DNA from: Deinococcales bacterium
GTDB taxonomy: Bacteria; Deinococcota; Deinococci; Deinococcales; JAAFIG01
DNA: 64,000 nt
Assembly (NCBI GenBank): GCA_043778225.1
Contig: JAYWGM010000052.1
Coordinates: 22,955 to 86,954, forward strand
Reading direction: 5' to 3'
Of this stretch, positions 11,161-60,944 are shown piece by piece. Below the pieces are notes generated by a model. It saw nothing but the letters and a program-made list of their open reading frames with translations, made no database searches and had not been told where the DNA came from. The position numbers were made by a program, and so were the translations under genes. Within the stretch, counting starts at the first letter, position 1, and each line of letters starts with the position of its first letter.

Positions 11161-11184
11161 GGGCGAGGCAAGCCCCGCCCCTAC
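11161..11184 (-). repeat. GTAG-type REP palindrome
   Basis: Minus strand GTAGGGGCGGGGCTTGCCTCGCCC, imperfect GC hairpin in intergenic DNA. Confidence 0.65.
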
Positions 11185-19408: not shown

Positions 19409-19436
19409 GTAGGGGTTTGCCATGGCAAACCCCTAC
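19409..19436. repeat. Perfect 28-bp GTAG-type REP palindrome
   Basis: GTAGGGGTTTGCCATGGCAAACCCCTAC equals its own reverse complement. Confidence 0.85.
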
Positions 19437-26295: not shown

Positions 26296-28689
26296 TTATT
26301 TGCCAGGGCATTTGGTTGGACCACCTACAACTGTGCCTTGTCTCGAGCAAATGATTTGTACCGTGTTTTCGAGCGTAATTTCGGTGCTGATCGGCGAATC
26401 GAAAGCAAACAGCCCACGGCTTTCGCCAAGCTCGGAAATGTTGATTGTGCCATCTGGATTGATGGTGTTTTCGCGGTAGGCGGTGATGTCGTATTGCCCC
26501 GGCTCGAGGTTATCAAAAGCAAATGCCCCACCCGCACCAAGGGGGGTATCGGGGTAATTCAGGCGAGTGCGTTGGTCAGCCATATCCACTCGGTAAATTC
26601 GTAAGAAATAGCCCAGTGGGTTACTTAAAACACTGTTGCCTTGGCTGTAATACACACGTTGCTCGAGACTGCGCGTGCCATATTGAAGATTGATTCGCCC
26701 AGCAAACTGACCATTTAAGCCATTTCGGTCTACGTTAATCGTCACCACTTGGCTCTGATTGGCGGCTAGGGTAATTACATTTGGTGTAACGCTTAAACCT
26801 GTACCAGTTGCACTGATGCTCAGGTTGGCAGCAGCATCTCCGACATTTTTTAGGGTAAATGTGGTCTGTGTTTCGCTCGAGCCTAAATCAATTTCGCTTG
26901 GTGTGGTTCGGACAATCACTGCCCCAATGACAGGTAAAGTCGTGGCTTTTTGTAGCGCTAAATTGGCATCGAGCAAACCTGCACCGCAACCTTGAGCGCA
27001 ACGGGTCAAACCACTTAAACTCGAGCTATCTTGTAAATACGAACGAACCCGTACCCAATTGCTCGAGTCTGTGCCACGCAAAGCCAGATTGCGGCTTATC
27101 ATCAGGGCAACCACACCCGCTACGTGTGGCGATGCCATGCTTGTACCATGGTATGAGCCATAGCCAAAGTTATTGCAGGGCGGAGTTGTGCCACCAGATG
27201 GACTGTGATACTGCCCAAGGTCGCCAGTGCCACAAGCCAGCACCGACAAGACCCCATCTTCGGCAAGGTTGCGTTGGGTAAAATCGCCGCCGGGCGCAAC
27301 CACTGCCACAGTCGAACCAAAATTAGAATAACTGGCTCGAGCTTTATTGGGGGCAAGCGCTCCAACTGCAATTACGCCTTGCAGATTGGCGGGTGTAAAG
27401 TTAGCGGCATCAATGTTGCTGTTGCCAGCCGCCACAACCACAATCACACCTTTGGCGTTTGCGGCATCAATGGCGGCTTGTAAAACTGGGCTGGGCGATT
27501 GCTCACCGCCCAAGCTCATGTTGATGATGTTGGCAGGATTTGGATTATTGGGCAGTCCATTTTGGGCAATTCCAGCCCCCCAGTAAACGGCGCTGGCAAT
27601 ACTGGCAATGTCGCCGCCCGAACCATCCAAAGCCCGAATTGGCAAAATTTGGCTTTGCCAAGCCACCCCCGCCACACCAAGCGCATTGTTGCTGCACGCC
27701 CCAACTGTTCCAGCCACGTGTGTCCCATGAAAACCAGCACTGGGGTCAGAATCAAAAGCATTGCTATCGTTTTGCACAAAGTCATAACCAGGCAAAATTT
27801 TGGGCTTGCCGGTTGCGACCTCGCAGTCAAAGTCTGGGTGTCGTTTAGCTGGGTCGGTGGCATCCCACAAAATCCCAGAATCCAGTACACCGACCACCAC
27901 ACCCGCGCCAACTTCGGCTTGGCTCGAGAAACCATCCCAAGTGGCTGGCAAATTTAGCATTTCGTAGTGCCATTGTTTGGGGTACAACGGGTCGTTGGGC
28001 GCAGCTTGGGCTTTAAGAATCGTGTTTGGTTCGGCACTGGCAATGTCGGAGCGCTGACGCAGGCTGCTGATAAATTGCAAAGTTTCTGTGGCTGCCTTAC
28101 CACGCACTCGAGAACTTGTACCTTGTATTCTGGCTCGAGCTTTGAGGCTTGGCGCTTCTATCAGTGCCGTGTTGCTGGCAATCCAAGTTTTGACCTCGAG
28201 ACCGACTGATTGTAAACGTGCTGCTGCCCCAGCGTTCTTAAACTGTACCAAGGCTTGCCCGGGGCGCATCTCGGCATTTTCGTAACCGGACATGGCAAAT
28301 TGCACCCCCGGACGCACCACACCAGCAATACTCGAGCAATTCTTGGCTTGGGGGGCTGCCACCAGATTGACCCGAATTGGATTGCTTTGTACGACGTTCT
28401 GCCCGTCTGAAATGGTGGCGGTAAAGGTTACGACTTGGTTACTTTGGGTGGTGGTTGGAGTCAAGAGCCACGAGGTCGTTTGCCCAGTCCCCGCAAATGT
28501 GCCGATGTTGGGCGAAGCCTTAAAGCTGTACCGTAAAGCCGCGTTTTCTGGGTCTCGAGCCACCACACTTAACGCCACCGATTGACAAGGCAAAACAGTG
28601 CTGCTCGAGACCACAAAATCATCCAGTAAAGGCGGTAAATTGCGAGTGCAAGCCAGTAAAAATGGCAAAACCAATAGAATGCGGCGCAT
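26296..28689 (-). CDS. S8 subtilisin-like serine protease, lipoprotein
   Basis: Lipobox LLAC; VLDSG, HGTHVAG, AAGN, GTSMASPHVAG. Confidence 0.93.
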   Translation of the reverse strand: MRRILLVLPFLLACTRNLPPLLDDFVVSSSTVLPCQSVALSVVARDPENAALRYSFKASPNIGTFAGTGQTTSWLLTPTTTQSNQVVTFTATISDGQNVVQSNPIRVNLVAAPQAKNCSSIAGVVRPGVQFAMSGYENAEMRPGQALVQFKNAGAAARLQSVGLEVKTWIASNTALIEAPSLKARARIQGTSSRVRGKAATETLQFISSLRQRSDIASAEPNTILKAQAAPNDPLYPKQWHYEMLNLPATWDGFSSQAEVGAGVVVGVLDSGILWDATDPAKRHPDFDCEVATGKPKILPGYDFVQNDSNAFDSDPSAGFHGTHVAGTVGACSNNALGVAGVAWQSQILPIRALDGSGGDIASIASAVYWGAGIAQNGLPNNPNPANIINMSLGGEQSPSPVLQAAIDAANAKGVIVVVAAGNSNIDAANFTPANLQGVIAVGALAPNKARASYSNFGSTVAVVAPGGDFTQRNLAEDGVLSVLACGTGDLGQYHSPSGGTTPPCNNFGYGSYHGTSMASPHVAGVVALMISRNLALRGTDSSNWVRVRSYLQDSSSLSGLTRCAQGCGAGLLDANLALQKATTLPVIGAVIVRTTPSEIDLGSSETQTTFTLKNVGDAAANLSISATGTGLSVTPNVITLAANQSQVVTINVDRNGLNGQFAGRINLQYGTRSLEQRVYYSQGNSVLSNPLGYFLRIYRVDMADQRTRLNYPDTPLGAGGAFAFDNLEPGQYDITAYRENTINPDGTINISELGESRGLFAFDSPISTEITLENTVQIICSRQGTVVGGPTKCPGK

Positions 28690-41998: not shown

Positions 41999-43222
41999 TT
42001 ATCTGAGAAGTTCAAGGGCTTTCTCGAGAACCGCATCTTTGCCCGTTAAACTTTGCAACTCGAGGTCGTCTGTAATCAACAAGTCTGGTGTGACAAAAGC
42101 AGGCAGATAGCCACCGCTTAACCGCAAACTCCTCGAGATGGTGATAAAAATGGCACTGCCATCTTGCAGTTCAAACGGAATCGTGGCAGTGTTACCCAAT
42201 CCGCCACTGACCTCGCCAAGCACGACGGCACGTTTTTGGTCTTGTAGCAACTGGGCAAAGTATTCTGCTCCGCTGTACGAATTTTTATTGACCAGCACAA
42301 TAATTTTACCCTTATACAAAAATGGTTGCGGAATAATGTTCAGGCGCAAACCAGCAATTTGCACCACGCCTTTTTCGATGGTTTGCTGATTACTGCCATC
42401 ACGGGTCTCAAGGATAAAACCACTTTTCTCGAGGAACGCGCCAACCGCTCCAATCATTTCGGTGGCAAGCCCGCCGGGGTTATCGCGGACATCTATAATT
42501 AAGTTGCTCGGTAAGTTCTTTTGCTGTTTCAAAAGCCCATGCACGGTGCTTGCTACCGCGCCACTGACATCAAAAATTGGTAAACGCAAATAGCCCACTT
42601 TGGGACTGAGGGCTTGATAAGTTGGCAACGGTGAGCGCACACTCGAGCCACGCACCCGCACCCCCAATGGCATTCCAGCCCGACGGATATTGAGCAGCAC
42701 TTCGTTGCCCGTAGCAACTTCTTTGGACAAAGCGGCACGGAAATCTGCGCCCAATAGGCTCGAGCTTTGATTATTAAAGCCCGCGATTCGGTCGCCGCGT
42801 TTTAAGCCAGCTTTGGCAGCCGCTGAACCCGCCCAGACATCGGCAATAATCCGATCAAAACTGTCTTTGGCATCGCTGGTGATAATGCCAAGTCGTGGAC
42901 TCGAGCCACCCAAACCACGGCTTTGCTGGATTTGCTGCTCGAATTGCTCAGGGGTTAGGTAATACGAATGCCCATCGTTTAAGGTCGCCATCATCTTTTG
43001 CAAAATTGGTACAGCACTCGAGTACGGGCAAGTCTCGAGTTGGTCTTTACAGGCTGTATCTAAATCGGCTTGAAATTGAGTGCCAAAAGAACTGCTATCG
43101 GCACTCGAGAAACCGTTGTAACGCACCGCAATAAAATAGGCGGCTTGATTAAAAAGGTCTTGGGCTGGGCTGGCAAAAGCACTCGAGGAAAAAAGCAGCA
43201 AGGCAATTAGGAAAGTTTTCAT
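41999..43222 (-). CDS. S41 (CtpA-like) PDZ peptidase
   Basis: DGHSYY, AGLKRGD, IDVRDNPGG, SYSGAE; start MKTFL. Confidence 0.9.
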   Translation of the reverse strand: MKTFLIALLLFSSSAFASPAQDLFNQAAYFIAVRYNGFSSADSSSFGTQFQADLDTACKDQLETCPYSSAVPILQKMMATLNDGHSYYLTPEQFEQQIQQSRGLGGSSPRLGIITSDAKDSFDRIIADVWAGSAAAKAGLKRGDRIAGFNNQSSSLLGADFRAALSKEVATGNEVLLNIRRAGMPLGVRVRGSSVRSPLPTYQALSPKVGYLRLPIFDVSGAVASTVHGLLKQQKNLPSNLIIDVRDNPGGLATEMIGAVGAFLEKSGFILETRDGSNQQTIEKGVVQIAGLRLNIIPQPFLYKGKIIVLVNKNSYSGAEYFAQLLQDQKRAVVLGEVSGGLGNTATIPFELQDGSAIFITISRSLRLSGGYLPAFVTPDLLITDDLELQSLTGKDAVLEKALELLR

Positions 43223-43300
43223 GCTTACCATTGTGCCAAAAAATTCTGACAAAAACGTGACTCCCAAATTTTGGGATAGAGAAATATCATCGTCATAACA

Positions 43301-43454
43301 GGACAGACACAGGCGACCATGCCCGACAGGTGCGTGTTTATGGTCAAGAGGGGTCTGTCCCTACAAAAAGGGCATGAAAATTTATTTTGTAGGGGCGAGC
43401 GACCATGCCTGTAAGGTGCGCGTATATGGTCAAGAGAACCCCCGTGTTCGCCCT
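43301..43454. mobile_element. Pair of GTAG-REPs, each interrupted by a 38-bp mini-element (43313-43350 and 43399-43436)
   Basis: GGACAGACACAG[38 bp]GGGTCTGTCCCTAC and GTAGGGGCGA[38 bp]AACCCCCGTGTTCGCCCT. Confidence 0.75.
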
Positions 43455-43533
43455 GTTTTTCTAAATTCAATGATACATCCTAGAATCTGGACTTTTCGGA
43501 GGCTCTATATTTTGGAAGCCACCCGCCAAAAAA

Positions 43534-44730
43534 CTACTTGGCTGTGCCGATGTCAAAGGTATAACGAATCGATTTTTCGCTAAAGACCACCAATTTTGCG
43601 GCTGCCACACCATCAGGGACTTCAAATAAATAGCGCACCTTGGATTCTTGCCCTGCGGTCAGTTCGCCGTCGCCATTTTCGTTGCGGGCAAACTTTAAGA
43701 AGTTTGAACCACACGCCCCCGCTGTTTGGCGCTCGTTTTCGGCATCGGTAAACTCGAGCGTAAACCCATCTGCACCGCACATCCCAAAACGTGCTTTTGG
43801 CGCACCCAGAGGCATTGAATTTTTGATCGTCAAGGTCAGGCGCACAAAACGCCGTCCGTTTTTAGGGCGCACATCGCCAGCCTCGAGTGTACTGATTTGG
43901 GCGCTCTCGAGCTTAAAATCGTTTAGCCCCATCGGATAAAATACGCCAAGCTGCGCCGTAATTTCCTCGAGTGCCTTAAAACCATTGCTGTCTGCCGCAA
44001 ACGGGGCTGGCAGTCCTTTAATTTTACCTGTCAGGTCGTAACGCACCACCCCGGCTGTGCGTTCACGGTTGCGTTCAACCACCAATTTTGGCACACTGAC
44101 ATCGTTTGGCACAACAAAAACCGTGTAGACATCCAAGCGCTGCCCTGGTTTTAGTGGTGTTCTGACGGGCGTAAAATCGTTGTCTCGAGCAATCGCTAAC
44201 TCACCACCCGCCCAAGCTGGTGTGACCGAAACATTACTCGAGTCTACGGTGGTAAAAATAAAACTGGCATTATCTAAAGCCACATCTTTGTTCTGTTGCG
44301 GATTTTGTGCTGTAAAGCGCATGATTAACAATTTTTGCTTGGCGTTAGATTGCCAAACTTCACGCCCAATCGCAATTCTGCCAACCGCATACTCGAGACT
44401 TCGCAAAGTAAAATTCAGTGGGCTTTCTTTGCCCAGCGTCACGGCTTGCCCAAACACGCCCACGCCGCCTGCAAGTTGTTGCGTTCCAGCCGCGCCAGTG
44501 CTTGGTGCAACTGCTCCTGCTCGAGACAGTGCCAAGGTATTGCCCGAGGTTGTGACATTGACCCCAAAGGATTTTAGGACACTGACAGGCACATAGCTTT
44601 TACCAGCCACGACAATCGCTTTTTCGCCACTGACCGCACCATTGATGGTGATAAACAAACTGCGCTGCACCGCTTGGGCAATTGCCAAGCCACCGAGTAA
44701 AACCGCACCAGCAATCAGGATTTTTCGCAT
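43534..44730 (-). CDS. Secreted hypothetical protein with beta-sandwich (DUF4352-like) domains
   Basis: Signal peptide; duplicated xFxVP motifs. Confidence 0.6.
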   Translation of the reverse strand: MRKILIAGAVLLGGLAIAQAVQRSLFITINGAVSGEKAIVVAGKSYVPVSVLKSFGVNVTTSGNTLALSRAGAVAPSTGAAGTQQLAGGVGVFGQAVTLGKESPLNFTLRSLEYAVGRIAIGREVWQSNAKQKLLIMRFTAQNPQQNKDVALDNASFIFTTVDSSNVSVTPAWAGGELAIARDNDFTPVRTPLKPGQRLDVYTVFVVPNDVSVPKLVVERNRERTAGVVRYDLTGKIKGLPAPFAADSNGFKALEEITAQLGVFYPMGLNDFKLESAQISTLEAGDVRPKNGRRFVRLTLTIKNSMPLGAPKARFGMCGADGFTLEFTDAENERQTAGACGSNFLKFARNENGDGELTAGQESKVRYLFEVPDGVAAAKLVVFSEKSIRYTFDIGTAK

Positions 44731-60725: not shown

Positions 60726-60944
60726 TAGACCTCTTGCATAAGTCCGAATCATTCATTTTTAGCACGGCGAACACTTCTTGACCATAAACTCGCACCTAAC
60801 GGGCATGGTCGCTTCTTGACCATAAACTCGCACCTAACGGGCATGGTCGCAAGGTTCGCGCTCTACAAAAATCGATTGTCTATAGGGGTGTTGCTTGTCA
60901 TCATCCTGTTTTCAGCGATGGAAATTATTTATGCAAGAGGTTTA
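60726..60944. mobile_element. MITE-like element with terminal inverted repeats, containing a REP pair and a tandem dimer of the 38-bp mini-element (60775-60850)
   Basis: TAGACCTCTTGCATAA ... TTATGCAAGAGGTTTA (15/16 match); GGCGAACAC[38][38]AAGGTTCGCGCTCTAC. Confidence 0.7.

Follow-up and report, generated by a model that had tools for sequence, protein, structure and literature searches.

A probable mobile hairpin element of 36–39 nt with a preference for hairpin loops in one family of Deinococcales

How do very small repeats move, and how do they build mosaics? The question is a long-standing one for REPs, for SDRs, and for the mosaic repeats of Deinococcus, and several described systems bear on it. 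Among the Nostocaceae, SDR4-6 are 'very small mobile repeated elements' (Elhai et al. 2008, as described in PMC4390886, PMC5861425, and PMC13756078); in these accounts, the families SDR1-8 measure 21–27 nt, and SDR5, of 21 nt, targets HIP1, inserting between the third and fourth base of this palindrome. REP/REPIN/BIME repeats and RAYT (Y1 HUH) transposases are treated in Bertels and Rainey (2011, PMC3116915, here in excerpt), and the excerpts of Di Nocera et al. (2013, PMC3733652) report REP families inserted within small target palindromes as well as REPs lying in frame in ORFs, including genes of DNA replication and repair. The latter source also presents the Rickettsia palindromic elements (RPE) as selfish palindromic repeats, in frame within functional genes. 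The SNRs of D. radiodurans (Makarova et al. 1999, as related in PMC1978522) number 295 copies, fall into at least 9 types, have an 'unusual, mosaic structure', and are present in one Deinococcus species and absent in a congener. Bridge-RNA-guided elements of the IS110 family (IS621, ISPpu9, and ISPpu10) home to REPs, according to excerpts of PMC12288879. Very small mobile repeats, palindrome-nested REPs, mosaic SNRs, and REP-homing IS110 elements are hence known already.

The hairpin family described here came to light in the window, i.e., the whole stretch of 64,000 nt of a Deinococcales genome that was analysed. Compared by description only, it resembles the SDRs in measuring tens of nucleotides, in being dispersed and lineage-restricted, and in its precise insertion into short repeats; it differs from them in size (36–39 nt vs 21 nt for SDR5) and in its host phylum, Deinococcota rather than Cyanobacteria. 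SDRs also nest. With REPs, the element has in common that it is short, high-copy, palindromic, and devoid of terminal inverted repeats, and its stem GCGACC..GGTC recurs as the inner stem of a local REP (GGGGCGACC..GGTCGCCC). Unlike REPs, it carries no GTAG/CGTC tag, has a large conserved loop of 13 nt, occurs singly or head-to-tail instead of as inverted doublets, and does not flank RAYT genes. The RPEs share its in-frame survival in functional genes, here purL (39 nt) and dnaX (4 x 39 nt). They are ~100–150 bp long, as opposed to 36–39 nt for the present element. Unlike the element, RPEs are not described as self-nesting in the excerpted text of PMC3733652. What is new is the combination—a defined unit of 36–39 nt, systematic self-nesting, filled/empty pairs, loop preference, and an RNA-guided IS landing in the element.

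A first-pass annotation of the window, made from the sequence itself, had recorded four copies of a 38-mer on both strands (Table 1) and interpreted it as a hairpin and as a non-autonomous mobile element far below MITE size, a view that our data bear out. An IUPAC pattern of the 38-mer finds exactly these four matches in the window and on average 0 in 100 dinucleotide shuffles, and reading the four matched rows likewise gives 32 of 38 invariant positions. Copy 1 is also a full-length nhmmer hit (C52:66267). As had been proposed, excising the copies restores known REPs, whose intact versions are found elsewhere in the genome: GGACAGACACAGGGGTCTGTCC for REP A (9 paralogues at ≤2 mismatches), GGGGCGAACCCCCGTGTTCGCCC for REP B (8 at ≤2 mismatches), and GGCGAACACAAGGTTCGC for REP C (8 at ≤1 mismatch). 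The insertion points do differ, lying 14, 10, and 16 nt from the GTAG/CTAC end in the flanks of REPs A, B, and C, respectively, and both REPs that had been named as uninterrupted are present. The exact junction at REP A has empty paralogues and falls in a loop of the DNA fold. The A that follows the tail G of copy 2 is the 'extra A' of the first-pass annotation; here, the empty paralogue requires that the core plus 2 bases be excised. An uninterrupted paralogue of the entire REP-A/REP-B pair exists at C64:14968-15044. The tandem-in-REP-C unit is found again at C31:33390 and C98:1723, where its wider surroundings are similar too, and the three therefore look like copies of one larger repeat.

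Table 1. Features of the window and two related loci of the same genome. Coordinates without a prefix are window positions; a slash marks a junction with an insert.
Feature	Coordinates	Strand	Description
Mini-element copy 1	43313-43350	+	Core GCG..CAAGA plus 1-nt tail G; pattern match and direct reading
Host REP A	43301-43364		GGACAGACACAG / insert / GGGTCTGTCCCTAC; insert in hairpin loop
Mini-element copy 2	43399-43436	+	Core plus tail G; pattern match and direct reading
Host REP B	43389-43454		GTAGGGGCGA / insert / AACCCCCGTGTTCGCCCT
Mini-element copy 3	60775-60812	-	First unit of identical tandem pair
Mini-element copy 4	60813-60850	-	Second unit of tandem pair; abuts copy 3, no spacer
Host REP C	60766-60866		GGCGAACAC / two tandem copies / AAGGTTCGCGCTCTAC
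Uninterrupted GTAG-type REP	11161-11184		GGGCGAGGCAAGCCCCGCCCCTAC
Uninterrupted GTAG-type REP	19409-19436		GTAGGGGTTTGCCATGGCAAACCCCTAC
IS110-family element, 1156 bp	G000:C26:30455-31610 (L185)		Pfam DEDD_Tnp_IS110 3e-23, Transposase_20 4e-18
RAYT-like gene	G000:C32:27219-27881		Y1_Tnp, 36 bits (cut-off 23)

In G003 and G005, two congeners whose flanking genes are ~75% identical, the orthologous intergenic region contains neither REPs nor 38-mers and offers no precise single-copy empty site. In its place (L002, G003:C75:41135-41275; L004, G005:C633:1033-1198), a ~23-nt tandem unit, CATGACCGACAGATGCGGTAGTCT, replaces the REPs, and tandem TTACTTGGCTGTACCAATGTCAG units occur at the 3′ end of the neighbouring gene region. 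In a related strain, one Logan contig lacks a 262-nt stretch that contains the entire REP pair and has 59 different letters there instead; Logan contigs break at repeats, and among them no gain or loss of an individual copy was observed.

Across the window's genome (G000; 4.03 Mb, 107 contigs, 48.7% G+C), the original pattern yields 15 exact matches, 36 at ≤3 mismatches, and 62 at ≤6, while iterated nhmmer returns 154 hits, 116 of them full-length (~116 full copies), and a looser loop motif 133 hits, with additional subfamilies that have other stems. Together these define a family of 36–39-nt hairpins whose stem covaries, whose loop (GCCCGNNAGGTGC) is conserved, and whose 3′ end is CAAGA plus 1–2 bases; the core measures 35–39 nt. 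The ends GCG and CAAGA are nearly invariant among 85 distinct sequences, as is the loop GCCCG-NN-AGGTGC (positions 9–13 and 16–21). Stem pair 7-29, on the other hand, is C-G in 31, A-T in 29, and T-A in 2 of them, and pairs 5-31 and 6-30 likewise change to A-T or T-A. The stem of 5–7 bp is subterminal, offset by 2 nt from the 5′ end and by 5–6 nt from the 3′ end. Terminal inverted repeats are absent, and the consensus of the 85 sequences, with ends GCG.. and ..CAAGA(N), lacks a GTAG or CGTC tag. Covariation of the flanks with the element's variable positions was not seen by eye.

How widespread is this family? A loop-plus-tail pattern matches 1–254 times per genome in 12/12 sampled genomes of the same Deinococcales family, the genome with a single match being 82% complete. 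In 48 genomes of four sister families, the same pattern gives 0–2 matches each, about as many as a reversed-pattern control (0–2). When one genome per species was scanned, multi-copy loci appeared, among the matches listed, only in 'MAG: Deinococcales bacterium' records, and the single hits listed elsewhere are as expected by chance for the pattern. A distant-mode search of a plasmid collection gave no match. These counts show the element to be restricted to one Deinococcales family. The SNRs, going by their description in PMC1978522, resemble it in phylum and in their patchy, lineage-bound pattern; the pattern of the present element gives only the 0–2 matches per genome mentioned above in the four sister families sampled.

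Membership of known repeat classes was considered and rejected. Speaking against REPs/REPINs are the missing GTAG/CGTC, the lack of an inverted-doublet unit—17 of 93 clusters are multi-copy, and both orientations occur in only 3—and the position relative to RAYT genes: contrary to the idea that the 38-mer flanks them, a copy lies within 1.5 kb of 3/14 RAYT-like loci and never on both sides. MITEs have terminal inverted repeats of ~15–30 bp, which the element, with its subterminal stem of 5–7 bp, lacks, as it does a fixed-length duplication. An origin from IS200/IS605 (as a PATE) would fit the absence of a duplication; however, the left flank shows no conserved 4-mer such as this transposition would require, only one hairpin is present, a copy lies near 1/12 IS200/IS605-type Y1 loci, and none sits at the ends of these loci, where the first-pass annotation had thought copies might be. 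Nor does the element correspond to an end of this genome's IS110, whose termini (GTAAGTT.. and ..CGGCTGC) are unlike those of the element; the recombinase, moreover, was detected in only 9/19 family genomes. A CRISPR repeat, another identity that had been entertained, is at odds with tandem copies that abut (60775-60850), with the absence of unique spacers, and with the solitary state of most copies. Rfam covariance models gave no match in the window at gathering score, nor at E ≤ 1 in 43200-43560, and literature searches aimed at SDRs and Deinococcus repeats retrieved no description of this particular hairpin family.

Does the element move? The clearest evidence comes from ten aligned homologues of the IS110-family element, taken from nine genomes, which contain six exact filled/empty pairs: five positions fall within the transposase gene and the sixth in the 5′ noncoding region, and for each of them other homologues hold the empty allele. 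Within the gene, insert lengths of 36 or 39 nt preserve the reading frame, and both orientations, already evident in the window, occur within this one transcribed gene. At two of the six sites, different subfamilies occupy the identical nucleotide in different genomes, and all six lie outside REPs. For 68 of the 98 distinct insertion sites in the window's genome, an empty paralogue exists (≤1 mismatch in 22 nt); since many copies were multiplied along with larger repeats, the number of independent events is smaller than that of copies.

To obtain the empty site, the core GCG..CAAGA must always be excised together with 1 or 2 further bases; excising the core alone never suffices. Which tail bases are present (A, CA, GA, G, or T) depends largely on the subfamily, and they are therefore read as the element's 3′ end. 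The base preceding the element equals the last tail base in most cases and is usually A, but several sites do not show this match (e.g., CCTT/core-A/GTGTT), which means that a true target duplication is absent; the lack of a consistent duplication, noted at first for the window, holds genome-wide. On the left flank, a purine prevails at −1 (A 64, G 23 of 99) and the right flank is G-rich; there is otherwise no signal, and a conserved 4–5-nt target on the left flank was not found. Multi-copy arrays are either head-to-tail or nested. Nests, up to three deep at GCCCGNNA/GGTGC, are ordered L1 L2 L3 R3 R2 R1, and their halves match pairwise by subfamily, pointing to successive insertions and not to slippage. 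Orientation relative to local GC skew is 47:41, the skew being weak here. Taken together, the data show that the element has moved to many sites without a consistent target duplication.

Where does it insert? Host classes of the 116 copies were assigned by regular expression. GTAG REPs harbour ~30 copies and form the largest non-self class, with the proviso that a few further tandem copies lie within REPs and a few of the ~30 are doubtful. Another 41 are in or beside a copy of their own family: 15 nested in the loop at the point given above, 4 nested at two other points, and 22 head-to-tail. Fixed positions in two MITE-like repeats account for 17 copies, A-rich octamer arrays for 8, CCCCC..GGGGG hairpins for 5, and other places for 15. 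The statement that every copy sits inside a REP thus applies to the window's four and not to the genome; likewise, of the parasitism of GTAG REPs that had been proposed, the part that stands is that REPs are a major host, whereas their specificity as a target does not. Even within REPs, the insertion point varies between loop, arm, and internal loop.

The common denominator of the targets is the hairpin loop, not the REP, and the REP-borne position of all four window copies is accordingly a sampling effect. Of 62 distinct non-self sites, which are not all independent, 25 fall within perfect inverted repeats of ≥6 bp (20 loop, 5 arm), compared to 982 of 20,000 random positions (482 loop, 500 arm) that include coding DNA; the other 37 sites lie outside any perfect palindrome. 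This test was used in place of a classification by MFE, which discriminates weakly (32/65 sites in a hairpin loop vs 353/1000 random positions). Beyond one site (CTCG/AG), no link of insertion sites to CTCGAG was found.

Two larger repeats deserve mention in their own right. A MITE with the terminal inverted repeats ATACCAAATTAAGTTAATCAGT ... GATTAAGTTAATTCGGTAT (G000:C98:44440-44720, C85:4020-4320, and C26:30350-31830) has two internal positions that are regularly occupied by mini-elements or by nests of them. Another repeat, of ~190 nt (AGTATCTC...GAGGTACT), with TA on both sides, is itself inserted in a mini-element loop at C1:31500-31700.

The loop is also the landing site of an insertion sequence. 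On C26, the IS110-family element (Table 1) occupies the loop of the innermost of three nested copies, the nest in turn lying within the MITE, and does so at the very position where copies nest. Among the loci fetched, this IS110 lineage is found in the element's loop at 10/10 left (..GCACCTT/GTAAGTT) and 10/10 right junctions (..CGGCTGC/T.. CGGGC). Its 5′ noncoding region (L185; relatives L012-L028) carries GCACCT and CCGTAAG, corresponding to one strand each of the mini-element loop, and, farther along, ACGGCTGC, which equals the last bases of the IS. A pair of target strands in the noncoding region is, reportedly from work on IS621, the arrangement expected of a bridge-RNA target loop, and judged from sequence, these stretches look like putative target and donor guides of a bridge RNA. 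No Rfam model matched the L185 locus at E ≤ 1. REP-homing insertion sequences are said to have been noticed by Tobes and Pareja in 2006; like them, the present lineage uses one fixed position in a multicopy hairpin repeat and holds both strands of the site in its 5′ noncoding region. It is unlike them in that the target is the mini-element loop, the mini-element being a target of the IS and not demonstrably its derivative. A three-level hierarchy results, in which a repeat lies within a repeat within a MITE and the innermost repeat in turn holds an RNA-guided IS; it is relevant to the selection of safe, multicopy targets by bridge-RNA recombinases.

Most relatives of this IS have, conversely, a mini-element inside their noncoding region, at GGCT/GCC. 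One IS copy, L027 (G016:C667), is without its first ~60 nt, host GCACCT being joined straight to the sequence after an internal GCACCCT, the arrangement that a deletion from the target to its guide-like copy would leave. By eye, the terminal ~22 nt of the IS end that adjoins the element's left half (G000:C26:30455-30480, right-end junctions) resemble the element's right half, with GTGTT-4 nt-GTCAAG in common, so that the IS end and its flank imitate, again by eye, a whole mini-element with an altered loop.

Which enzyme might move the element? The RAYT-like gene of Table 1 is interrupted in frame by an inverted pair of GTAG REPs (27440-27470 and 27575-27605), between the HUH motif and the C-terminal part. 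About 24 nt upstream of the gene, in G000 and G006 alike, is a REP with a mini-element in it. RAYT-like homologues are present in 11/12 sampled family genomes, often in several copies. An IS605-type element (G000:C28:83000-84650; Y1 tnpA plus a tnpB-like ORF) has its own end hairpins, which are unrelated to the mini-element. The absence of terminal inverted repeats and of a consistent duplication, the single hairpin, the insertion in both orientations, and the head-to-tail arrays fit a single-strand reaction of the HUH type better than a DDE transposase.

We consider it very probable that the family is a mobile mini-element that seeks hairpin loops. The fuller reading, in which a hairpin element with a strong loop preference is likely moved as ssDNA, in trans, by a host-encoded HUH enzyme of the RAYT type, has in our view an even chance; a RAYT/HUH enzyme as the mobiliser is our leading guess and a tentative one. 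In such a scheme, the DNA intermediate would be single-stranded, targets would be hairpins that are extruded or exposed as single strands, and a RAYT-like Y1 transposase would bind both REP hairpins and the element's own hairpin, a dimer taking one hairpin as donor and another as target. A dimer holding both hairpin types would explain why REPs and the element itself are favoured hosts. Counting against RAYT are the lack of flanking of RAYT genes, of a GTAG tag, and of a conserved target tetranucleotide, the presence of RAYT-like genes in 10/48 sister-family genomes without the element, and the lack of a strand bias, a weak test. Going one step further, the family may exemplify a distinct class of mobile DNA, ~38-nt hairpins that enter hairpin loops, their own included, through hairpin-into-hairpin single-strand transfer without a sequence-specific target, possibly by a RAYT paralogue, and that are so abundant that an RNA-guided IS110 lineage has evolved to land in them; this we regard as doubtful. 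If true, and if other nests share the mechanism, it would be a widespread, overlooked route by which bacterial repeats grow into mosaics. The material is unusually clean, with exact filled/empty sites, distinguishable nests, cases of identical nucleotides, a defined unit, and a loop preference, and its clean sites, nests, and defined insert make a biochemical test with few candidate enzymes practical.

Other explanations account for part of these observations. That the mini-elements are non-autonomous IS110 derivatives, moved in trans by a DEDD recombinase and its bridge RNA in the manner of ssr9 of ISPpu9, would agree with the IS sitting in the loop at the nesting position, at all the junctions recovered, and with the likeness of one IS end to the element's right half. 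Yet the element ends (GCGACC.. / ..GGTCAAGA) are unlike those of the IS, save for 6/9 bases at one end by eye, the IS110 guide-like GCACCT and CCGTAAG fit the loop only, most targets of the element being unrelated in sequence, and elements also disrupt the IS110 gene itself. The distributions differ too: the IS110 Pfam family is detected in 9/19 family genomes and the element in 12/12 sampled, and the ten genomes in which it went undetected include some with 47–98 pattern matches (among those without a detected IS110, G006, G011, G013, G010, and G009 have 47, 91, 10, 98, and 73 matches, respectively). A double-stranded circle of 38 bp is, besides, sterically implausible, and counts against this route. 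A small module moved as a circle by an IS110 transposase is nonetheless on record (excerpts of PMC12288879). We hold IS110 mobilisation to be improbable, and less likely than the RAYT/HUH model. Narrower specificity, that is, a parasite confined to GTAG REP hairpins that uses the REP/RAYT machinery, as the first-pass annotation had it, draws on the REP location of all four window copies, on REPs being the largest non-self class genome-wide, and on the copy-bearing REP next to the RAYT-like gene; it appears quite improbable given the 41 copies in or beside their own family, those in MITEs, octamer arrays, CCCCC..GGGGG hairpins, and coding sequence, the varying points within REPs, and the six exact IS110 sites outside REPs; the host classes and these IS110 sites contradict it as a claim of specificity.

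Some other mechanism, be it an unrecognised dedicated recombinase, an RNA intermediate with reverse transcription, or the repair-linked capture of an abundant hairpin oligonucleotide, is unlikely but to be taken seriously, as none of the enzyme families tested (Y1, RAYT, and IS110) tracks the element, and the variable 3′ tail could come from untemplated addition. Cyanobacterial SDR elements are likewise without a known mechanism in the excerpts of PMC13756078 and PMC5861425. Against these options, both orientations inside one transcribed gene argue against reverse splicing into RNA, the largely subfamily-specific tail is more likely part of the element, and the occupation of one and the same nucleotide by different subfamilies indicates an enzyme that chooses its sites. 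Finally, the hairpin might be no mobile element at all and instead a functional, structured DNA or RNA motif, spread only via duplication and gene conversion of its host repeats. The loop is indeed strongly conserved across genera, several sites belong to larger repeats that are themselves multi-copy (such as the REP-A/REP-B pair, MITE1, and MITE2), and the copy upstream of the RAYT-like gene is common to G000 and G006. We nevertheless judge this very improbable indeed, as exact insertions in unique coding sequence with empty alleles contradict it, and the nesting of different subfamilies, the in-frame copies in purL and dnaX, and the absence of an Rfam match are further points against it.

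Three copy sites lie in frame in coding sequence: in purL, encoding a FGAM synthase of 1254 aa, with one 39-nt copy; in the C-terminal part of dnaX, with four tandem 39-nt copies; and in an IS3 orfA, where one copy adds 13 codons. By way of such in-frame insertions, the element alters the essential proteins PurL and DnaX. Near codons 55–80 of purL (G000:C4:16449-17024, L187-L190), 5/5 genus members examined have an in-frame small palindromic insert, a GTAG REP in four congeners and a CCCCC..GGGGG hairpin plus mini-element in G000, so this site is a hot spot for small palindromes. The purL of G006 has a second REP further upstream. In the anticodon loop of a tRNA-Ile(UAU)-like gene (G000:C28:45852-45962), itself a weak gene call, a 37-nt copy separates positions 32 and 33. 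The cluster in which this gene lies contains odd tRNA-like genes, possibly pseudogenes, which ARAGORN calls solely in intron mode.
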